DNA from: an uncultured Mycoplasmatota bacterium
Lineage (GTDB): Bacteria > Bacillota_I > Bacilli_A > RF39 > UBA660
NCBI GenBank assembly: GCA_947296775.1
Contig: CAMYRF010000001.1
Coordinates: 1 to 45,420, forward strand
DNA: 45,420 nt
Direction of reading: 5' to 3'
Of this stretch, positions 9,009 to 45,420 are shown piece after piece. How positions within the stretch are numbered: the stretch's first letter is position 1; each line of letters starts with the position of its first letter. Under the pieces are notes generated by a model. That model made no database searches. It worked only from the letters and a program-made list of their open reading frames with translations, and had not been told where the DNA came from. Made by a program: the position numbers and the translations under genes.

Positions 9009-12000
9009 TTAAATTAGCAACGGACTTTTACCCGTCTGCCTTACTATTCCATTGTGTTGCTCGAATACCGATTTACCTACTTGTTTTCCGTCAAGCATTA
9101 CCGTAGTATGAATCTCGTACTTACCGCCACTGCTCATACCAGCCATAGCACTGCGCATAGCATTATATACTCCACCGCTTACCGCACTTACGATTTGGTC
9201 ATTATTAGCTACTGCGGTTTTTTTACCGATACGTCCTACTAACTCGGGTCCAGCTTCACGAGCTACGAACATTTCTCCCATGTCAGGGAATCCACCATTG
9301 GCACGTAAAGTGATTTCATATTCCTTTCCGTTTACATTTAAAGTATTTTTGTTCGCTTTTAAGTTAATGGTTACTTCTGGTTTAATTGTCTCAATTTTTT
9401 CTTTTATTGAATCTAATGTTATTTTACTTGGAGCTTTTACATCTACATTCACTTCTGGTTTACTATCTTCTGCAAGTTTTTCTATTTCTTCCATTATTTT
9501 CTTTGTTTCTTTTGTAGGTTTATCACCGTTTTCTTTTAGCTTGTTTGCTAGGTTTTCTATTAAACCTAGCCCTTGTGTATTTCCAGATTCTAACCACTTT
9601 TTAGTAATTTCTTCTAAAGTTTCTTTATCAGCTTTTTTTAACTTACTGTTAGAAATAATTTTTGTAGATTCTAATTTTTTGTAATCATTTTCTATTTTCC
9701 TTAGCTTATCTTCATTAGCTTTTTCCAAGTTACTTAATTGTTCTTTTAAATAATTTTTATCCGTCTCTGTTAATTTTGCTCCATTTTCTTCTACAGCACT
9801 TAACATTTCTTCATATGATTTATTAGTAGCAAAAGACTTCTCTGCCAAATCATTAAGAAGCTGGATTCTTGCTTCCTTGCTTGCTTGTTGTTCAGTTTCA
9901 CTTAACAGTTTCCATCTACTTCCGTTTTCATCACAAATTAAACTTAAATCGTTTAACCCGTTAGCAAGAGAAGTGAATGTATAATATCCATCGCCAGCCA
10001 TTTTACCATACTGTTCACAGATACTAGCAGTAACACTTGCTACCGTCCCATCCATAGCTCTTACTGCGGAAGTGTAATTATTTTGCGCTTCGGCATTATT
10101 AGTAAATGCTACTTCAGCTTCCTCTAAAGCTACTTCTGTATTTTCGAACACAGTTATTAAATCGCCATGTTGTCTCTTCACTCTATCTAAAGCTCCCCAA
10201 TAATTACCTGTTTTATTGTTAATTTCTTCGACGGATGCTCCATATTCCATCAATTTAGAAACTAATTCTTCATGTGCAATACTATAATCTTGCTGAGCAT
10301 TAGTTAATTGTTCACGTACTTTCTTTTCTTCTTTTATTGCATTTACATATTCTTCTTCATATGCTTGTACAAGCGCTTTCCTTTTCAAAATTTCTATACT
10401 TTGATTCATTACATCGATTTCTTCTTTGTAATTTTCTATAACACCATCTGTTATTTTTATATTTGTGCCTAATGCTTCATTAACTTTATCAGCATAGTAC
10501 TTAGCTTGTTCCATACTTCCGTTTACACGTCCGTTTTCATCCACTAATTTAGTTAATTCGTTTTTATATAACATTACAGTTTCATATTGCGTGTTTACTT
10601 TTTCGGCATTTTCTGCACCAATTTCGTTTAATTTCTTTTGTTCACTGGATAATTTTTTACACTCTTCTGCCAGCTCTTGCGATTTCTTAATCTGCTTTTC
10701 TTGTGCATCTGTTAATTTATTACTGTCACCCATTAATGCTACACAAGCTATACTTACTGCACCAAGAGCACCTACTACTGCTACCAAAGGGTTAGATGCT
10801 AAGAAACTCATTACACTTCCTAAAATTCCACTAGATGCAACTGCACCATCTGTTGCGACAGATAAAGCGCCCATTTTAACACCAACATTTTGAATTACAC
10901 TTCCCAAAGGAGCACATGCAGTATTTAATTTACCTACAAAATTAATCATGGAGCTTAGTGGTCCATTATTTGCTAACACAGCTTCTTTTATTGCCATGAA
11001 CGTCATTTGCGCACCACAATTTTTAAACAATGTAATTGTGTTTAATAATGTTTTAAACACAGTACTTGTACTTGAAATTTCCTTCACTTTCCAAGCACCG
11101 ATAAAAGCAACTACTAGCGGAGTCACCCCTGACACAAGTGGTTTCAATGCCTTAAATGTTATGCCTAACACCTCTATTACTGTAGCAACTGCATCAATAC
11201 CTTTCAAAATTGCACCACCACATAATTTTAATAATTCAGTAGCTAATTTCTGACACACAGAAATACCAGGTTTTATAGCATCTAATATTTTTGCTAATCC
11301 TTTCATAGCTTTGGATAAACTATTAATAATACTTGGTACTGCTTTTTCAATAGCCCATTTAGATAATGGTTCTAATACATTTTTATAAGCATCATATAAA
11401 TAATTACTTACTACAACCGCTATATCTTCAAACGCTTCACTTAATCCTCTTACACTCTTTAATGCTGGTGTAAAATCTAATTCCTTAGTAAACTTTTCAA
11501 TGTCTTCAGTTATAACTTCAACACATTCTAATAATGTATTAAAACTGTTCCATAAATTCTGTACTATCTGTGTACCATAGTTACAGTTATCCCATGCTTT
11601 CCTGAAATTTTGAGCTATATTCCCTATACTATTGTTTAAATTCGTAACTATTTTCAGTATACGGCTTATTGTTTCTTCACCAGTTCCATTCTGCCATACA
11701 GTACCAAAACTATTTCCAATACTACCTATTAATTTTCCTATCTCATCCCATTGATATTCGATAGAATCAAGAACACCTTTACCATATTTGTTCCAGCTTT
11801 CTGTAACTGGTTTAAATATTTCAGCCATTTTTTTAGATAATCGGTCCATCATTTCGGTAGTTTGGTTTTCAAGTCCTTTTAGAAAATCATACTGTGGTAG
11901 TTCTATATCACCTATAGAACCTCCTCCACCATTACCATTACTATTACCACCTGAATCACCATCATCAGGTTTACTTATTATGTTAAGTTCATCGAATCCC

Positions 12001-13520
12001 ATTAACTGTTTTTTTAATTTTTTAATTTTATCCGATGTTCCACCCACTGCATCACTTGCATTATCCGCAGAATCTTCTATATCATCTAAAGCCCCTCCAT
12101 TTATACCACTGTAGTCAATTTTAGGTAACTCGAATCCAAAGAAGTTAGCAATAGTATTAGCTAAAGAAGTTAGCCACTGTACTGCTATCTGTACATATGG
12201 AATTAACTTGCTTATAAATACACTTGCAATATTACCTACTGCACGTTTTAGCATCGTAAACTGTTGCGTTAAAATACGAACTGCATTCGCTGGTGTAGCA
12301 ATTGTACGTGCCATATCATTAAATACATCTACTTTAGATGCATTATCCATAATAGTTATGTAACGCATAATAGCTTGTGTGTTTTGGTCCCAGTCAGATA
12401 CTGCACCATCAAGCCCATATCTAAGCCCAGTTTGTTTAACCATAGCTACAGATACATTGTTACCATAATCTTTAAGACCTTTGATTTGTCCACTCATCGC
12501 TGAATTAATTTTATCGAATGATTCACTAGGATCAACATTCATCAACGATGAATAATCATAAGCTAACTGTGTTAAATTCTGTGACATGATCTGTGCTTTA
12601 TCACTTGCTACACCAAATCCAGTAATAAGGTTATTTAACCTACCTTGAAAACTCATCCATTCACTGGTATCAATCCCCATAGCTTCTTGAACCTTGTTTG
12701 CAAAGTCTAAAGCGCTTTGAGTGGTTTCACCCATTGCAACATTGAATAGGTTTAAGTTTTCTACATATTGTGATGATTCTTCAAATACACTTGTTACAGC
12801 ACTAGTTAGACCTTGTACAACAAATGTAACAGTTTTAAAACTCGCTACCGATTTACCTAATCGGCTCATTAAGCTACCGCTTGTTTTGCTTGCTTTAGAA
12901 GCACTTCTTGAATAGCTTTCCATTTGTGTAGTTGCTTTTTTTATGTGCCATGGTAAATTACTAAATGCTTTCCCTAACTTAATAGATACTCCATTAAGCG
13001 GTTTTATTGCACTCGCCAACTGTTTCATTTGTGAAGTGAATTTATTGAAGTCGACATCGTTTAAAGCTCTCTGCATTTCAGGTAATTTCTTTAATTGATT
13101 AAAGAAACTTCCTAGATTTGTTTTTCCTAATTCTTGCAGTGGTTGCATTGCACTAGTCAGTTGTTTTATATCATTAGTAAATTTATTGAAATCAACATTA
13201 CCAACACTTTCAGAAATCATTTTCATATCAGAAAGTTGTTTTAACAAACCAGTAGCACCAGTTTTAAATCCATTCAATTCCTTAAAACCAGAAGCCATAC
13301 GCTTAACTTTGTCACCGATGCTACCAAGTTGTGCTAAATTGTTGCCACCTGATACATCAGCTAGATTTTTTAATGCAGTAGAAAAACTTCTTAAACTGCC
13401 AGCTCCATTAAGATTATTTTTTAAATTTCCTAATGAGCCAGCTAATTTGTCTATCTCTTTACTTGCATTACTGGAATTACTTTCTATTTCAATACTTAGT
13501 TTGTCTATTTCTATTGACAT
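9009..13520 (-). CDS. Tape measure protein
   Basis: 1503 aa, coiled-coil and TM-rich with internal duplications (NVDFNKFT...QL.SA..PL). Lies after the chaperone pair. Confidence 0.9.
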   Translation of the reverse strand: MSIEIDKLSIEIESNSSNASKEIDKLAGSLGNLKNNLNGAGSLRSFSTALKNLADVSGGNNLAQLGSIGDKVKRMASGFKELNGFKTGATGLLKQLSDMKMISESVGNVDFNKFTNDIKQLTSAMQPLQELGKTNLGSFFNQLKKLPEMQRALNDVDFNKFTSQMKQLASAIKPLNGVSIKLGKAFSNLPWHIKKATTQMESYSRSASKASKTSGSLMSRLGKSVASFKTVTFVVQGLTSAVTSVFEESSQYVENLNLFNVAMGETTQSALDFANKVQEAMGIDTSEWMSFQGRLNNLITGFGVASDKAQIMSQNLTQLAYDYSSLMNVDPSESFDKINSAMSGQIKGLKDYGNNVSVAMVKQTGLRYGLDGAVSDWDQNTQAIMRYITIMDNASKVDVFNDMARTIATPANAVRILTQQFTMLKRAVGNIASVFISKLIPYVQIAVQWLTSLANTIANFFGFELPKIDYSGINGGALDDIEDSADNASDAVGGTSDKIKKLKKQLMGFDELNIISKPDDGDSGGNSNGNGGGGSIGDIELPQYDFLKGLENQTTEMMDRLSKKMAEIFKPVTESWNKYGKGVLDSIEYQWDEIGKLIGSIGNSFGTVWQNGTGEETISRILKIVTNLNNSIGNIAQNFRKAWDNCNYGTQIVQNLWNSFNTLLECVEVITEDIEKFTKELDFTPALKSVRGLSEAFEDIAVVVSNYLYDAYKNVLEPLSKWAIEKAVPSIINSLSKAMKGLAKILDAIKPGISVCQKLATELLKLCGGAILKGIDAVATVIEVLGITFKALKPLVSGVTPLVVAFIGAWKVKEISSTSTVFKTLLNTITLFKNCGAQMTFMAIKEAVLANNGPLSSMINFVGKLNTACAPLGSVIQNVGVKMGALSVATDGAVASSGILGSVMSFLASNPLVAVVGALGAVSIACVALMGDSNKLTDAQEKQIKKSQELAEECKKLSSEQKKLNEIGAENAEKVNTQYETVMLYKNELTKLVDENGRVNGSMEQAKYYADKVNEALGTNIKITDGVIENYKEEIDVMNQSIEILKRKALVQAYEEEYVNAIKEEKKVREQLTNAQQDYSIAHEELVSKLMEYGASVEEINNKTGNYWGALDRVKRQHGDLITVFENTEVALEEAEVAFTNNAEAQNNYTSAVRAMDGTVASVTASICEQYGKMAGDGYYTFTSLANGLNDLSLICDENGSRWKLLSETEQQASKEARIQLLNDLAEKSFATNKSYEEMLSAVEENGAKLTETDKNYLKEQLSNLEKANEDKLRKIENDYKKLESTKIISNSKLKKADKETLEEITKKWLESGNTQGLGLIENLANKLKENGDKPTKETKKIMEEIEKLAEDSKPEVNVDVKAPSKITLDSIKEKIETIKPEVTINLKANKNTLNVNGKEYEITLRANGGFPDMGEMFVAREAGPELVGRIGKKTAVANNDQIVSAVSGGVYNAMRSAMAGMSSGGKYEIHTTVMLDGKQVGKSVFEQHNGIVRQTGKSPLLI

Positions 13521-22472: not shown

Positions 22473-22510
22473 AAAAAAAACCCTTACTTAAATAAGTTTG
22501 GGTTTTTGTT
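22473..22510. terminator. Bidirectional terminator
   Basis: A8-CCC...loop...GGGTTTTT. Confidence 0.55.
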
Positions 22511-22781
22511 ACTTTTCGTACCATCGATTTCCGCAATCCATACAGAACCATTCTTCACTTACTTTTTTTCTTGCACCAGTCGCAAATAAAGATAAACCGC
22601 CAGTCATTAAAGCACCAGCAACCTTCCCCTTTGAAACAACTTTCTTTTGCTTCTTCTTTGTTTTAGTGACTGTTAATGGGTGAAGCGGATTTAAGTTTAA
22701 TGATGTTTTATAACCAGCTGGGGCATCATCAATTAAACATATATGTGTACTTTTACATTTAGGACATTTCATTTTTGCCAT
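22509..22781 (-). CDS. Zinc-ribbon protein (CPKC...CMDC) with a basic linker and a Gly-rich segment
   Basis: AAAGGAGG RBS; two CxxC pairs. Confidence 0.6.
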   Translation of the reverse strand: MAKMKCPKCKSTHICLIDDAPAGYKTSLNLNPLHPLTVTKTKKKQKKVVSKGKVAGALMTGGLSLFATGARKKVSEEWFCMDCGNRWYEK

Positions 22782-22797: not shown

Positions 22798-23023
22798 ACC
22801 TAAATACATCTTATGTTGTTATTAAACTCTGCTTGTGAAGTATCAATCTTGAAAACCGCCTTTATTTCAATACATCATATGTTGGTATTAAACTTAAAGT
22901 TAAATCAGCAAAACTTTGTGCCAATTCCATTTCAATACATCATATGTTGGTACTAAACAGTAAGAAAGCTGGAGAAAAAGCTAAAAAGAACTTATTTCAA
23001 TACATTATATGTTGATATTAATA
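22798..23023 (-). CRISPR. Cas-less mini-CRISPR array: 4 repeats of 30 nt and 3 spacers (36, 35, 35 nt)
   Basis: Repeats at 22798, 22864, 22929 and 22994. Minus-strand consensus is GTTTAATACCAACATATGATGTATTGAAAT. The region is non-coding. Confidence 0.8.
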
Positions 23024-23034
23024 GCTAATTAACA

Positions 23035-23901
23035 TCAATCGTTAGTTGTCGGCTCCTTTATTATTACTTTAACAGTGTTACTTTTTATTTCTTCTTTAGT
23101 AATCTTTGAAATAGCATAAAATTGTATTTCTGTTTCGCCAGCTTTAAGTGCTTTTAATGAATTCTCATCAGGATTGAACTCTATAAATTCTTTATCACAC
23201 TTAATTTTTAAATCGTAATTTTCAATATCATCTATTGGGTCAAAATCTATATCACCACCAAATGTATCGCCCACAGTTACATTTATGCAGTTGATATCAC
23301 TAGTATATTCGATTTTAGGTTTAGAATCTGTTTTTTCTTTCTGATTAGCTTTTATGAAGAACATATCACAATAACTATTTAATTTTTCTACTGTAGTTAA
23401 ACCGATACCACTAATAAAATCTAAAAAATAAAGAAAATTTGGCGCATCAGTACAAAAACTGTTTTTATTATCAGGATCTTGCAACGGACTATAAACAAGT
23501 ATCATATCATTTTCATCTATCGTTTCTGGAAGTGGATTAATAAAATTTTTCCTATAGCTACTACTTTCTAAATCATCTGCTGGTATTTTATAATCAGCAT
23601 CATAGAATCGGCAAGTAACCACACGGGGTTCCGTTACATCAGGCATGAATTGTACTTTAATTCCCTTTTCCCATGTTGTTGTATCTTGACTATCTGTTCC
23701 ATCATATAAAACCATATAATCAGGATATTTTTTATCATCACCATCATCATCAATAATATAAGAAAAATTATATCCTTTTTCTTTGGCTTTTTTAGTTACT
23801 TTTTCATAAAAATCCCAATCATGTTTATCTTTCTTCCCCCCGCACCCTACTACACCTACACATAATAATAAAACCAATATCCCTTTAATTATTTTTTTCA
23901 T
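23035..23901 (-). CDS. Lipoprotein with a C-terminal Big_2-like domain
   Basis: Signal peptide plus lipobox LLLCVGVVGC. Start reassigned to MKKIIKG. Confidence 0.7.
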   Translation of the reverse strand: MKKIIKGILVLLLCVGVVGCGGKKDKHDWDFYEKVTKKAKEKGYNFSYIIDDDGDDKKYPDYMVLYDGTDSQDTTTWEKGIKVQFMPDVTEPRVVTCRFYDADYKIPADDLESSSYRKNFINPLPETIDENDMILVYSPLQDPDNKNSFCTDAPNFLYFLDFISGIGLTTVEKLNSYCDMFFIKANQKEKTDSKPKIEYTSDINCINVTVGDTFGGDIDFDPIDDIENYDLKIKCDKEFIEFNPDENSLKALKAGETEIQFYAISKITKEEIKSNTVKVIIKEPTTND

Positions 23902-24232
23902 TCTCAATGCTCTCCTCTTCCTTTTTTGACACAACAGCTCTTAACAGTTCGTTATTGTCGCTTTGAAGCTGGATAAGTTCTCCAAATCCATATACCAGCC
24001 CGCTTGTAGCAGTAACAGCCATTAATGTTCCGAAAAATTTGGATGCATTAAATTTTGTAACTGTTTCAAAGCTTTCTTCCTCTTCTTCATACCACAGACT
24101 ATCACTTTCCTTTAATACCAGTTCATCTTCCTCAGCCATACCTATACTGCCGATTATACCAAGGGCTAAAAAAACCAAGCTACCGATTTTTAAAATTTTT
24201 GCAATTCTGCAGTTTTTAATTTCTTTTTCCAT
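23885..24232 (-). CDS. Two-TM membrane protein with an acidic loop
   Basis: GGGAGG RBS; two hydrophobic helices. Confidence 0.6.
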   Translation of the reverse strand: MEKEIKNCRIAKILKIGSLVFLALGIIGSIGMAEEDELVLKESDSLWYEEEEESFETVTKFNASKFFGTLMAVTATSGLVYGFGELIQLQSDNNELLRAVVSKKEEESIENEKNN

Positions 24233-24333: not shown

Positions 24334-24711
24334 TTACAATGCATATTCTACTTTTTCTTTATCAAACTGCTCTAATTTAGATATAATTTCTAGATATTTA
24401 TCTTCATATAAGTTTTTAAAATCACAAATAACTCCGCCTATTTCTTTTCTGTTAATTGTAACTTGTTTATGAGTTCTAATATAACTTATTTTATTTAAAT
24501 TACAGTCAGGATAATCTATGGGATTTATTTTTATATCATAGTCCTGATTCCTGCGTCTTTTATCAGAAATCGTAGATATTGGAAGTACAATATAATCATT
24601 GTCTAATACCCCATATCCAGCTATAACTAAACCAGGTCTAGATTTAAACTTCATAGCAGAACTTCTCGTATCATAAAATGGAGTAATTATTTTTCCTATC
24701 AAATTTAACAC
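24334..24711 (-). CDS. PemK/MazF-fold toxin-like protein
   Basis: KSRPGLVI...YIVLPISTIS...SYIRTHKQVTINRKEI fits the MazF/PemK pattern. Overlaps the upstream gene by 7 nt. Confidence 0.6.
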   Translation of the reverse strand: MLNLIGKIITPFYDTRSSAMKFKSRPGLVIAGYGVLDNDYIVLPISTISDKRRRNQDYDIKINPIDYPDCNLNKISYIRTHKQVTINRKEIGGVICDFKNLYEDKYLEIISKLEQFDKEKVEYAL

Positions 24712-25193
24712 TCCACATCATCAAATTCATCATAATACATATCCCATACTGCATCATATGGTCTAACTTTTCTTGCATCTATGGCAATATCCTCTATTTT
24801 CATTTCTTTATCTCCTGGATATCCTTCTGGTATTCCTATTCTACTATTTTTCCATGAATACTCCTCATGAGATAAATTTCTTAAATACCAGGAATCGTAA
24901 TAGCCATACTGTTCAAAAACATTCCTTACAATATAAGCCTCTTGCTGATCTAATTTTTTTGTTAGACAAACAATCCCATGTTCTTTATCATATCTTTTTC
25001 TTACTTCAGTAGAAACAGGACCATGTACCCATCCCTCAAAACTCTCATTAAACATAGGTTTTGAAGTTAATGCTATACTCTCACGTTGAATAAAATACAA
25101 TAGTTTCTGTAGTTTTAATTCATCTATTTTATCTCCAGTTTTTTCCTGATAATATTCATATAAATATTGAGCAACTGATAAAATACTAGTCAT
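24705..25193 (-). CDS. Panacea/DUF4065 (SocA/GepA-like) antitoxin-domain protein
   Basis: LKLQKLLYFIQ...GWVHGPV...RKRY are DUF4065 hallmarks. Confidence 0.65.
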   Translation of the reverse strand: MTSILSVAQYLYEYYQEKTGDKIDELKLQKLLYFIQRESIALTSKPMFNESFEGWVHGPVSTEVRKRYDKEHGIVCLTKKLDQQEAYIVRNVFEQYGYYDSWYLRNLSHEEYSWKNSRIGIPEGYPGDKEMKIEDIAIDARKVRPYDAVWDMYYDEFDDVEC

Positions 25194-42532: not shown

Positions 42533-43639
42533 ATGGCTAGAAAGCAGACTTTTAAGCGCAGACCAAACAAAGCGGGAACAGTAGTAAAATTATCAGGGAA
42601 GCGAAGAAAGCCTTACTGTGCAAAAATAACTGCTGGTAGAGACCAGATTACAGGCAGACAGATACAAAAATCTATTGGAACATATGAAACTTGGGAAGAA
42701 GCTGATGATGCTTTAACTTTATACCGATTAAATAAAAGAAAAATGATCAGTGATCAAGAGGCTATGTCTCTAGCCCCTGCAACATTTAATAAATTAGTAG
42801 AGCAGAGGAATAAAAGCATACCAACTTTTAAGGAAATTTATGACCTGGTATACGAAGAAGATTTATGTAAATTAGCCACTAATACAACAAAAGGATACAT
42901 TAACGCAGTAAAACATTTTAAGTCGATCTATAACATAAAAATAAACAATATAAGCCTAGCAATGCTTCAGGATCTTTTTGACAACGACAGCACGGGTCAT
43001 GGCATGAAATCATTAATGAAAATTTTATGTGCTAAAATTTTTAAATATGCAGTAATTCATAAATATATAAACCGTGATGATAACTACGTTGAATATATCA
43101 GATTAGGTGAATACAAAGAAAGTACATTACACTATGCTTTTACAAGTAAAGAAATAAAAACATTGATTAATGATGGCTCGCTCGATGCTAAAATAGTTTT
43201 AATTTATATTTTTACAGGCGTTCGAGCAAATGAACTTCTTAATCTGCCAAAAGAAAATATTACCATAAGTGAGATTTCTTATTTTGTTACAGGAATTAAA
43301 ACAACAGCTGGTAAAAATCGTATTGTCCCTATCCATGATTTTATAAAACCTTTTATTATAGAACTGATGGATGCAAGCAAAAAAGAAACGATAATAAATT
43401 ACAGCTATGACAATTTTAGAAGACGCCATTTTTCTGAATTGATGAAAAAATTAAATATGAAACACACATTGCATGATACTAGAGATACTTTTGCTACTCT
43501 CTGCCAAGAGAACAATATCGATATATTTATTAGAAAAAGAATTTTAGGACACAAGATGCGGGACATAACATTTGATACATATACTACAACTGTAATTGAA
43601 ACGTTATGCAAAGAGGTTAATAAGATTAAAATCCCATAG
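42533..43639 (+). CDS. int: Tyrosine integrase
   Basis: HDTRDTFATL, LGH and a C-terminal Tyr region; 368 aa. Confidence 0.9.
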   Translation: MARKQTFKRRPNKAGTVVKLSGKRRKPYCAKITAGRDQITGRQIQKSIGTYETWEEADDALTLYRLNKRKMISDQEAMSLAPATFNKLVEQRNKSIPTFKEIYDLVYEEDLCKLATNTTKGYINAVKHFKSIYNIKINNISLAMLQDLFDNDSTGHGMKSLMKILCAKIFKYAVIHKYINRDDNYVEYIRLGEYKESTLHYAFTSKEIKTLINDGSLDAKIVLIYIFTGVRANELLNLPKENITISEISYFVTGIKTTAGKNRIVPIHDFIKPFIIELMDASKKETIINYSYDNFRRRHFSELMKKLNMKHTLHDTRDTFATLCQENNIDIFIRKRILGHKMRDITFDTYTTTVIETLCKEVNKIKIP

Positions 43640-43850
43640 TTTTTTGTTACTTATTTGTTACTTATTAGGCACATTTCGTCACTTTTCATCGCCCAAGCAC
43701 CTTAAAAATACGTTATTTAGTATATTTTAAATATTATCTACAATAATATTTTTTTAGCGTATACCAACGTTTTTGAGATATTTGTTACTTATTTGTTATT
43801 TACAGAGTACATTTTATCACATTTTTTTATCACAAAAGCACCCAAGTTTA
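43640..43850. other. attP-like region with arm-type direct repeats
   Basis: TTGTTACTTATTTGTTA(C/T)TTA occurs at 43644 and 43782. Each occurrence is a tandem of an 11-mer. Confidence 0.5.
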
Positions 43851-44150: not shown

Positions 44151-45110
44151 TTATTGAGGTAACTTCTGGACAAGATACCAATTATTTGGAAACCCTAGTG
44201 AAGACAATATATCATTACAACTAATTGTATTTAACCCTTTTTTTAGTACCCAAGCTCTTTTTCTTATTGTGTTATATATTTGTCCATATTGATTTTTAGA
44301 AAGAAAACACTGTAAAACCAAAAATACATTATACACATCTTGACGAGGAGAATTTTTATCAATATCATACTTACTATGTAATTCATCATTATATACTGTA
44401 TTTTGCCTGCACTTGAAACTTAAAACTCTATTATTATGGGCAACAATATTTCTCAACTCAACAATATTATTTAAATAAGATATTAACTGTTTAGGTTGTA
44501 ATAAGCATTTTTTTAATTCTAAATTTTCTATTAAAAATACACTAAAATCTTTTGCTATACGATTTTGAATAGACGGCTTTAGATATGTATAAAATTTAAC
44601 CACTTCACCAAAGCACATATAATTAATAACCACCCAAAATGGTACCTTTCCATAATTTATAAGATAATGTTTAATAGCATTGTTGTCGTTTTTTTTATTA
44701 TACCTATTTATAATATTGCTCATTTTAGATATAAGGCTAGTAACTTTTAACATATTATCTGAATTGTAATTTGTCGCAACCAAATAAGCATAATCATCTA
44801 ACTTATATTCTTCAGAAAATCTATAGGCTATAATAGATTTTAAATGCTTTTCAGCTTCAATTATTGCTTTAAATAATGCACTTTTTAATTCCTTATCAAA
44901 AAAATGAACATTAGTAATTTCATCAAAATTTGTACCTTTAATATATTCATCATCATGATCAATAAAAAATTTACCATAACAATTAATAACATTATAGTAA
45001 TTATTATTTAAAAGATATAACTTAGCTTTTTTAACATCAGTAAACTGTACTCCTCTATTTTGTAGTAATTCTAATTGCTCATCTATAGTTTTAAATGGTT
45101 TAGATTTCAT
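44151..45110 (-). CDS. Abi_2 (AbiD/AbiF-like) HEPN-domain abortive-infection protein
   Basis: N-terminus KPFKTIDEQLELLQNRG, followed by ELRNIVAHNN (R-x4-H HEPN motif). AAGGAG RBS. Confidence 0.75.
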   Translation of the reverse strand: MKSKPFKTIDEQLELLQNRGVQFTDVKKAKLYLLNNNYYNVINCYGKFFIDHDDEYIKGTNFDEITNVHFFDKELKSALFKAIIEAEKHLKSIIAYRFSEEYKLDDYAYLVATNYNSDNMLKVTSLISKMSNIINRYNKKNDNNAIKHYLINYGKVPFWVVINYMCFGEVVKFYTYLKPSIQNRIAKDFSVFLIENLELKKCLLQPKQLISYLNNIVELRNIVAHNNRVLSFKCRQNTVYNDELHSKYDIDKNSPRQDVYNVFLVLQCFLSKNQYGQIYNTIRKRAWVLKKGLNTISCNDILSSLGFPNNWYLVQKLPQ

Positions 45111-45131: not shown

Positions 45132-45203
45132 AACAAAAACCTTCTCACAGAATGAGAAGGCTTTGCGCAAATAGGCTCCGTAGAGTATCTATCGCTACAT
45201 CGT
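45132..45203 (-). ncRNA. Roughly 70-nt sRNA unit, gene-proximal copy, ending in an intrinsic terminator
   Basis: Lies downstream of TTGACA-17-TAGAAT. Contains GUAG/CUAC and the palindrome TTTGCGCAAA. Ends with CCTTCTCA-TTCTG-TGAGAAGG-TTTTTGTT, 21 nt before the abi ATG. Confidence 0.6.
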
Positions 45204-45209
45204 ATAATC

Positions 45210-45238
45210 ATTCTATAATTATTTTTCTGTTTTGTCAA
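45210..45238 (-). promoter_or_regulatory. Near-consensus promoter of sRNA copy 1
   Basis: Minus strand TTGACA-17 nt-TAGAAT. Confidence 0.6.
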
Positions 45239-45248
45239 TAACATTAAT

Positions 45249-45320
45249 AACAAAAACCTTCTCACAGAATGAGAAGGCTTTGCGCAAATAGGCTCCGTAG
45301 AGTATCTATCGCTACATCGT
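45249..45320 (-). ncRNA. Second identical sRNA unit
   Basis: 100% identical to 45132-45203. Confidence 0.6.
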
Positions 45321-45326
45321 ATAATC

Positions 45327-45355
45327 ATTCTATAATTATTTTTCTGTTTTGTCAA
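45327..45355 (-). promoter_or_regulatory. Promoter of sRNA copy 2
   Basis: Identical TTGACA-17 nt-TAGAAT. Confidence 0.6.
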
Positions 45356-45420
45356 TAACATTAATAACAAAAACCTTCTCACAGAATGAGAAGGCTTTGC
45401 GCAAATAGGCTCCGTAGAGT

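Follow-up and report, generated by a model that had tools for sequence, protein, structure and literature searches.

The stretch of DNA analyzed here, hereafter the window, is contig CAMYRF010000001.1 of assembly GCA_947296775.1 (45,420 nucleotides, deposited under an uncultured Mycoplasmatota bacterium), a circularly assembled phage genome of ~45.4 kb whose ends overlap by 55 nt; its minus strand carries, at 22798-23023, a small CRISPR array. We conclude that this is very likely a type I-B array without CRISPR-associated (cas) genes, borne by a temperate phage of Thomasclavelia cocleata and excluding sibling phages through the machinery of the host. The two parts of this reading differ in strength: there is little doubt that the array is a genuine phage-borne array of I-B type directed at sibling phages, and it probably works, to judge from the sequence, via host Cascade and Cas3 interference.

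Anatomy of the array and its versions in sibling phages

A repeat search finds four 30-nt repeats at 22798-23023 on the minus strand, separated by spacers of 35, 35, and 36 nt (start-to-start distances 66/65/65 nt), and the repeat core CAACATANNATGTATT is present in 4 copies in the window versus 0.00 expected from 100 shuffles, confirming both the array and the coordinates proposed in an earlier reading made from the sequence alone (the sequence-only reading). A CRISPR array is defined by direct repeats of 23-50 nt at regular intervals with unique spacers of similar length; here the period is 65-66 nt and the three spacers are mutually unrelated. The promoter-proximal repeat R1 (23023-22994, TATTAATATCAACATATAATGTATTGAAAT) differs at 4 positions from the consensus copy R3 (22893-22864, GTTTAATACCAACATATGATGTATTGAAAT), R2 (22958-22929, GTTTAGTACCAACATATGATGTATTGAAAT, beginning GTTTAGTACC) differs at 1, and the terminal R4 (22827-22798, GTTTAATAACAACATAAGATGTATTTAGGT) at 5, so that the outer repeats are indeed degenerate to the extent first described. 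R1 has decayed at its 5′ end and in the loop, with the 3′ handle ATTGAAAT intact; the first 24 nt of R4 are identical to the Thomasclavelia repeat discussed below, and at its degenerate 3′ end it merges with the downstream gene's ribosome-binding site, AAAGGAGG. The spacers are S1 (35 nt, 22959-22993, AAGTTCTTTTTAGCTTTTTCTCCAGCTTTCTTACT), S2 (35 nt, 22894-22928, GGAATTGGCACAAAGTTTTGCTGATTTAACTTTAA), and, at the trailer end, S3 (36 nt, 22828-22863, AAAGGCGGTTTTCAAGATTGATACTTCACAAGCAGA), all on the minus strand. Each is directly preceded by ATTGAAAT and directly followed by GTTTA, so the claim of an intact motif on both sides of every spacer holds throughout. A further claim, that the mid-repeat substitutions preserve an ACAT/ATGT stem and hence processing by Cas6, stands only in part: the substitutions (ATG to ATA in R1, ATG to AAG in R4) do sit between ACAT and ATGT, but the 4-bp stem is not thermodynamically significant (repeat fold z-scores -0.9 to +0.9, the minimum-energy fold pairing other bases), and retained Cas6 processing would be compatible with the sequence.

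Exact-protein look-ups with the portal, 90-aa protein, integrase, tail protein, and resolvase retrieved ~35 contigs from ENA, Logan, JGI, and NCBI assemblies, and every relative covering the accessory-gene region has one or more arrays built on this repeat and oriented alike. Seven array versions occupy this region in phages with an identical portal or 90-aa protein: the window and contigs L004 and L011 have S1, S2, and S3; L015 has S3 only; L008 has one new spacer, and L007 two new spacers, ahead of S3; L006 and L009 share a common trailer spacer but differ in their first spacers; and L005 has two separate two-spacer arrays. Altogether there are 13 distinct spacers of 34-36 nt, those at the trailer end being shared and the promoter-proximal ones differing, and identical versions recur unchanged in ENA, Logan, JGI, and NCBI contigs.

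The surroundings of the arrays vary as well. The two arrays of L005 (4968-5127 and 6675-6833, with loop bases AGG and GTG) lie 1.5 kb apart and flank three small genes, and in L007 (3425-4041) and L008 (1538-2154) a 173-aa open reading frame (ORF) is bounded on one side by the terminal repeat and on the other by a hybrid solitary repeat, ATTTAATACCAACATATGATGTATTTAGGT, which precedes the 90-aa gene. The 173-aa ORF has no family match, and a Pfam scan of the variable accessory genes flanking the arrays of relatives found no families. The placement of the 173-aa ORF suggests that accessory-gene cassettes recombine at the CRISPR repeats, which would serve as joints.

Protospacers in the tape-measure gene

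When all 13 spacers were aligned against all phage DNA of the sibling contigs, 10 mapped to a single ~1.3-kb cassette of the sibling tape-measure gene, five on each strand, as expected for DNA targeting, and none matched the genome that carries it. The exchange is reciprocal. S2 matches L007, L008, and L010 perfectly (35/35) in the tape-measure gene, next to a TAA 5′ flank, and has no match in its own genome; conversely, the tape-measure gene of the window is matched 36/36 at 10401-10366 (minus strand) by the first, promoter-proximal spacer of L006, with a TCA 5′ flank. The best match of S1, with 6 mismatches and a TCA 5′ flank, is to the cassette of L006, L149, L150, and L151, which bear the other allele. 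The proposal that the spacers are aimed at competing phages is borne out by these matches, the competitors being close siblings.

The cassette is hypervariable. In the window it occupies 9324-10654 (minus strand) of the tape-measure gene (9009-13520) and holds all mapped protospacers; it has no detectable nucleotide similarity to the corresponding DNA of siblings carrying allele B, as against 95-97% identity in the DNA on either side. Between the proteins of alleles A and B, identity is only 21-32% over residues ~1000-1400 but 90-100% for most of the rest. Allele A is found in the window and L152, and allele B in L005, L006, L007, L149, and L150, the B sub-alleles being 75-93% identical to each other. 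Spacers of A carriers target B, and spacers of B carriers target A and other B sub-alleles.

The ten 5′ flanks of the protospacers are TCA (four times), TAA, TTA, TTG, TCT, TCC, and TAC, so that T occupies position -3 in all ten (p = 1.7e-5), TCA accounts for 4 of 10 (p = 1.1e-5), and 8 of 10 belong to the published set of clostridial I-B protospacer-adjacent motifs (PAMs; p = 1.5e-6). In that set, Clostridium pasteurianum uses TCA, TTG, and TCT and Clostridium tetani TCA, TTA, and TAA, the T at -3 being conserved and the spacers measuring 34-37 nt (Pyne et al. 2016, PMC4860712). A conserved PAM beside the protospacers had been put forward as a check on the sequence-only reading, and T at -3 in every flank accords with one. 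That reading had also named outcomes that would speak against it, among them a repeat foreign to any host CRISPR class, spacers lacking protospacers, and relatives pointing to a decaying repeat; we find instead that the repeat matches a host class, that protospacers exist, and that relatives display spacer turnover rather than decay.

Spacers S3, sp4, and sp11 match none of the loci compared. Beyond the siblings, all 13 spacers gave only chance-level matches in INPHARED and the PLSDB plasmids; and patterns for S3 and S1 that allowed any base at every sixth position were found neither in IMG/VR nor in the JGI metagenomes.

Repeat family, host, and transcription unit

Scanning GTDB representative genomes with AACATNNGATGTATTGAAAT returned at least 119 loci, whose consensus repeats we ranked against the phage repeat. 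Among the matches listed, the closest is that of Massilimicrobiota timonensis f30 (GTTTAATAACAACATATGATGTATTGAAAT, 44 copies, 1 mismatch to R3), followed by that of Thomasclavelia sp. 17-1_25 (at least 5 arrays) and T. saccharogumia (GTTTAATAACAACATAAGATGTATTGAAAT, 2 mismatches to R3), and arrays with repeats 1-2 nt from that of the phage have 12-44 repeats each. The phage repeat differs at ~7 positions from what we take to be the repeat of C. pasteurianum. In Rfam the phage repeat scores highest against CRISPR-DR3, with 24.3 and 22.4 bits, both below the gathering score.

Clustering of the ORFs adjoining arrays across all loci, with a view to finding cas operons, yielded gene families that correspond in size and order to a type I-B cas operon and adjoin arrays in 11-24 loci among the matches listed. 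From the type I-B gene set, which comprises Cas6, Cas8b, Cas7, Cas5b, Cas3, Cas4, Cas1b, and Cas2, NCBIfam identifies Cas1b (TIGR03641, 4.5e-122), Cas5b, Cas3, and Cas2 in locus L115 and Cas6 (TIGR01877) in L078; the arrays flanking Cas1b/Cas5b/Cas3/Cas2 have the same 3′ 20-mer as the phage repeat family, and the M. timonensis array (L081) is followed by an ORF 44% identical to the TIGR01877 Cas6 of L078. These comparisons of sequence support assignment of the phage repeat to a clostridial-type I-B family, as had been surmised from the look of the repeat. Initial inspection of six loci (L081, L062, L041, L036, L109, and L042) showed only housekeeping genes, and no cas genes, beside the arrays. 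Arrays of the same repeat set lie dispersed among housekeeping genes without adjoining cas in L081, L036, L041, L062, L088, L109, and L122, and the dispersed arrays of the Massilimicrobiota and Thomasclavelia genomes resemble the multi-array organization of Clostridioides difficile.

The host itself was identified from an integrated copy of the phage. In contig L146 (GCA_949455125.1) the integrase of the window is followed by host genes encoding proteins that exactly match those of T. cocleata, namely phosphofructokinase WP_278928480.1, peptide deformylase, and methionine gamma-lyase, and the junction carrying these proteins identifies T. cocleata as the host. The junction with T. cocleata DNA falls at the TTTGTTACTTA repeat region, beside the host peptide deformylase gene. 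Just downstream of the tyrosine integrase gene (42533-43639, plus strand), the window has 11-nt TTTGTTACTTA repeats at 43643-43666 and 43779-43802; these probably serve as arm sites for the integrase or form the attP region. At the nucleotide level, the L146 host flank overlapped none of the genome loci, and Cas6 homology searches for a T. cocleata cas locus returned metagenomic or Lachnospiraceae proteins, or too few hits.

Nor did phage databases contain the locus. A megablast search of INPHARED with the locus gave no match, and a distant blastn search with the array gave chance-level matches only; the best portal match, at 41% identity, comes from a [Clostridium] innocuum phage and phage contigs of human-faecal origin. 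Within IMG/VR, only unrelated contigs had the repeat pattern and none had the Thomasclavelia-type pattern, so the phage family is absent from IMG/VR. One of the unrelated contigs (L001, 10253-10291) has an intergenic solitary unit of the same I-B-like repeat family, and another (L003, 4247-4436) has four progressively decaying units, spaced 64/49/50 nt, immediately past a terminator. Both are candidates for solitary repeat units, Racr elements (RNA anti-CRISPRs, considered below), or mini-array remnants.

The window is the genome of a temperate siphovirus-like phage. It encodes an SPP1-type portal, a large terminase, Rha/Ant-type regulators, a 1503-aa tape-measure protein, lysis genes, a D5-like primase, a helicase, a tyrosine integrase, and a resolvase, and almost all of its genes lie on the minus strand, as does the array. 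The array takes up the whole interval from a lipoprotein gene, whose stop codon is at 23035, to a gene for a 90-aa protein, whose start codon is at 22781; the sole ORF overlapping it is 47 aa long and on the plus strand. No cas genes appear among the best 25 of 28 PADLOC families listed for 57 window ORFs, nor in Pfam and PHROGs scans of the genes neighboring the array, in agreement with the initial statement that the genome has none; lacking adjacent cas genes, the array is an orphan dependent on the host.

A sigma-70-like promoter matching consensus (TTGTAA, 17 nt, TATAAT) at 24290-24262 (minus strand) heads the operon that contains the array, 1.2 kb upstream of it. Between them lie genes for a 115-aa membrane protein (24232-23885, minus strand) and a 288-aa lipoprotein (~23902-23035, minus strand, signal peptide MKKIIKGILVLLLCVGVVGC), neither with a family match. 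Immediately downstream of the array is the gene for the 90-aa protein, a zinc-ribbon protein (22509-22781, minus strand), which is absent in L006 and L009, and the transcription unit ends in an intrinsic-terminator-like hairpin and U run (22473-22506, minus strand); in the second array of L005, and in L006 and L009, the terminator hairpin directly follows the terminal repeat. Promoter-like consensus matches are not enriched in the region around 24290-24262. In L015 alone, however, the homologous promoter lies ~10 nt upstream of the first repeat, a placement that supports array transcription from the 24290-24262 site. We infer that the array is transcribed from this promoter as part of an accessory-gene (moron) operon, an assignment made from sequence features; the orientation claimed originally, in line with the upstream promoter, agrees with that of host arrays as well.

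Other defense-like cargo is found at 24334-25193 and 44151-45110: a SocA/Panacea-domain antitoxin sits beside a toxin resembling MazF/PemK, and PADLOC detects an abortive-infection protein, AbiD/Abi_2, with an E-value of 5e-52; this cargo places the array in a cluster of defense or exclusion genes, next to the lipoprotein gene at 23035-23902. A perfect 117-nt direct repeat, in two full copies and a partial third, extends across the circular junction (45132-45420 and 1-65); each copy contains a terminator-like hairpin, CCTTCTCACAGAATGAGAAGG, and two full copies are also present in L140 and L145.

Mechanism, alternatives, and known systems

We envisage that host Cas6 would cleave the operon transcript 8 nt upstream of each spacer, leaving the 5′ handle AUUGAAAU; that a compatible host repeat would fit GTTTAATA[AC]CAACATA[TA]GATGTATTGAAAT; that the resulting CRISPR RNAs (crRNAs) would load into host Cascade, and Cas3 would then degrade siblings with the other tape-measure allele, either on entry or upon induction in a cell harboring both prophages; and that the outcome would be heterotypic superinfection exclusion, to the benefit of both prophage and lysogen. 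The targets cluster in the cassette because spacers matching the carrier cannot persist and siblings differ over no other long stretch; primed adaptation could contribute as well. Spacers would probably be gained by recombination between repeats, as suggested for leaderless phage mini-arrays (PMC6858448), or else by host Cas1-Cas2 acting without a canonical leader. The absence of a leader, the heterogeneity of the repeats, and the presence of the 173-aa gene between the terminal and hybrid solitary repeats of L007 and L008 favor recombination.

Several observations weigh against this reading: i) only 2 of the 10 mapped spacers match perfectly, the other eight having 3-9 mismatches to the sampled alleles, and the two with 8-9 mismatches are individually weak; ii) S3, the most conserved spacer, has no target in the sibling loci, INPHARED, PLSDB, IMG/VR, or the JGI metagenomes; iii) at repeat position 9 the phage consensus reads C, against A in all close host repeats; iv) the repeats within a single phage array are heterogeneous, unlike those of host arrays (42 of 44 are identical in M. 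timonensis); v) there is no leader, the first repeat starting 11 nt past the lipoprotein stop codon and the upstream sequences varying between array versions; vi) at the Rfam gathering score of 41 bits the window has no hits, only CRISPR-DR3 and DR27 appearing below threshold; vii) compatibility with the host appears to follow from the repeats of congeners and a sister genus, not from a CRISPR-Cas locus or repeat of T. cocleata itself; and viii) no convincing match to the phage was found among 1470 host spacers from 119 loci among the matches listed, the best being a Thomasclavelia spacer with 10 mismatches in 36. Rfam DR models represent only some repeat variants.

One alternative would be a decoy: a transcript resembling an RNA anti-CRISPR (Racr) would mainly soak up host Cas6 and Cas7 and so blunt the I-B immunity of the host to the phage itself, the spacers being incidental, and the degenerate repeats of the phage arrays, the extra solitary hybrid repeat of L007 and L008, and the solitary or decaying units of the same repeat family on unrelated IMG/VR contigs could all be accommodated in this way. 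We nonetheless consider it improbable, because the window units are full repeat-spacer-repeat units with canonical 35-36-nt spacers and intact 8-nt handles, and because 10 of the 13 spacers match siblings beside PAM-like flanks and without self-matches, none of which a decoy needs. A solitary repeat without a functional guide, the hallmark of Racr, is present only in L007 and L008, the window having three full units with identifiable targets. Decoy and targeting roles are compatible, however, and a decoy may be an added effect, or may apply to the solitary units. The missing leader, the degenerate outer repeats, the heterogeneity of the repeats, and their apparent use as recombination joints for neighboring gene cassettes would also suit passive capture, in which a fragment of a host array was moved by recombination and is now neutral and decaying; yet the same array versions persist unchanged across ENA, Logan, JGI, and NCBI samples, no handle or spacer-flanking half-repeat is affected by the degeneration, none of the 13 phage spacers is among the 1470 sampled host spacers, and the spacers are specific for the rival tape-measure allele and never for that of the carrier, as expected under selection but not of a random slice. 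We therefore regard passive capture as quite improbable.

The conservation of S3 across array versions and both tape-measure alleles, with no protospacer in the databases searched, could instead point to a regulatory role in which partial pairing between a host promoter (that of cas or a toxin gene) and at least one spacer, most notably S3, would silence immunity, and phage mini-arrays encoding regulatory crRNA-like RNAs have been reported (bioRxiv 10.1101/2024.10.29.618823). This is highly improbable as an account of the array, since it leaves S1, S2, and the ten cassette-targeting spacers unexplained, and no partial match to S3 was found in the host-lineage loci compared, a set outside which the T. 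cocleata genome falls. That the repeats are not CRISPR at all, and represent protein-binding iterons, RNA-processing sites, or some other tandem repeat, is hardly credible: the stem-loop is weak and the Rfam match below threshold, but the repeat is 1-2 nt from those of genuine arrays of 12-44 repeats, and the unit and spacer lengths, unique spacers, turnover, protospacers, and PAM-like flanks all fit CRISPR. Array comparison, spacer turnover, and protospacers effectively exclude it.

Exclusion of siblings by a cas-less I-B array thus remains the preferred reading, and it invites a broader and frankly speculative proposal, which we rate as less likely than not: that reciprocal conflict at the population level maintains, and perhaps drives, the two diverged cassette alleles and their sub-alleles in prophages otherwise 95-100% identical, with leaderless arrays gaining spacers by repeat recombination that also shuffles accessory cassettes. 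If this were true, CRISPR repeats would double as a phage recombination module and CRISPR targeting would be an engine of phage allele divergence.

The phenomenon itself is already known. Virus-borne mini-arrays following the same logic have been described (PMC6858448, PMC11656645), the concept was established in 2019, and the window array leaves it unchanged. Mini-arrays have been defined as having one or two spacers (PMC6858448, PMC11656645); L015 has 1, and L006, L008, L009, and each array of L005 have 2, but the window and L007 have 3. The limit is arbitrary and the difference one of degree only, and in functional terms the window array is a virus-borne mini-array. What it offers is a clean natural case, in phages of a mammalian-gut commensal, of borrowed CRISPR immunity turned against the closest relatives with both sides visible, and an unusually well resolved one: the host is identified, and there are seven array versions, perfect reciprocal matches, a single allelic battleground, and PAM-like flanks. 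The case bears on whether inter-phage CRISPR competition shapes the allele diversity of structural genes and on how leaderless arrays gain spacers, and the S2 protospacer (TAA flank) and the target of the L006 spacer (TCA flank) are concrete reagents for work on superinfection exclusion in Thomasclavelia.

With the type I-B systems of C. pasteurianum and C. tetani (PMC4860712) and with Rfam CRISPR-DR3, the window array shares a 30-nt repeat of the form GTT..AACAT..GATGTATT.AAAT; its spacers fall in the 34-37-nt range of those systems, and it shares with them a 5′ PAM with T at -3 (TCA, TTG, TCT, TTA, TAA). It differs in lacking cas genes and a leader and in scoring below the DR3 gathering threshold. 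Racr elements (Camara-Wilpert et al. 2023, PMC10651486) are likewise phage RNAs that mimic host repeats and depend on host Cas proteins, but they are solitary units without working guides that inhibit Cas complexes, whereas the units here are complete and, judging by their matches, have guides that could be targeted. The phiC2-like prophages of C. difficile (Hargreaves et al. 2014, PMC4173771; Boudry et al. 2015, PMC4556805) provide another parallel from gut Bacillota with dispersed type I-B arrays: there too, spacers match other phages of the same host, and their content differs between related prophages. Those arrays are larger (7-24 spacers per prophage), use another repeat, and lie beside the tape-measure gene, whereas the window array is tiny and sits in an accessory operon, the tape-measure gene being its target and not its neighbor.

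Two precedents come closer still. The mini-arrays catalogued in numerous tailed phages and prophages (Faure et al. 2019), as described in later papers (PMC6858448, PMC11656645), are also leaderless with host-like repeats, have spacers that target related viruses and not the carrier, and have been suggested to gain them by inter-array recombination; relative to what those papers relate, the present case resolves several co-circulating array versions and a defined allelic target. The nearest counterpart is found in the Saccharolobus portogloboviruses SPV1 and SPV2 (Medvedeva et al. 2019, PMC6858448), in which a cas-less viral array with host-like repeats occupies the same position with different spacers in close relatives that target each other reciprocally, self-targeting being avoided because the orthologous locus of the carrier has diverged, and for which heterotypic superinfection exclusion was proposed. 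All of these features recur here, with four differences: i) the carrier infects bacteria, being a temperate tailed phage, and its repeat is of type I-B, whereas SPV1 and SPV2 are archaeal viruses; ii) there are three spacers (one to three in relatives) instead of one or two; iii) the array has no leader and is embedded in a protein-coding accessory operon; and iv) the targets, adjoining in the archaeal viruses, are confined here to one 1.3-kb tape-measure cassette ~12 kb from the array.

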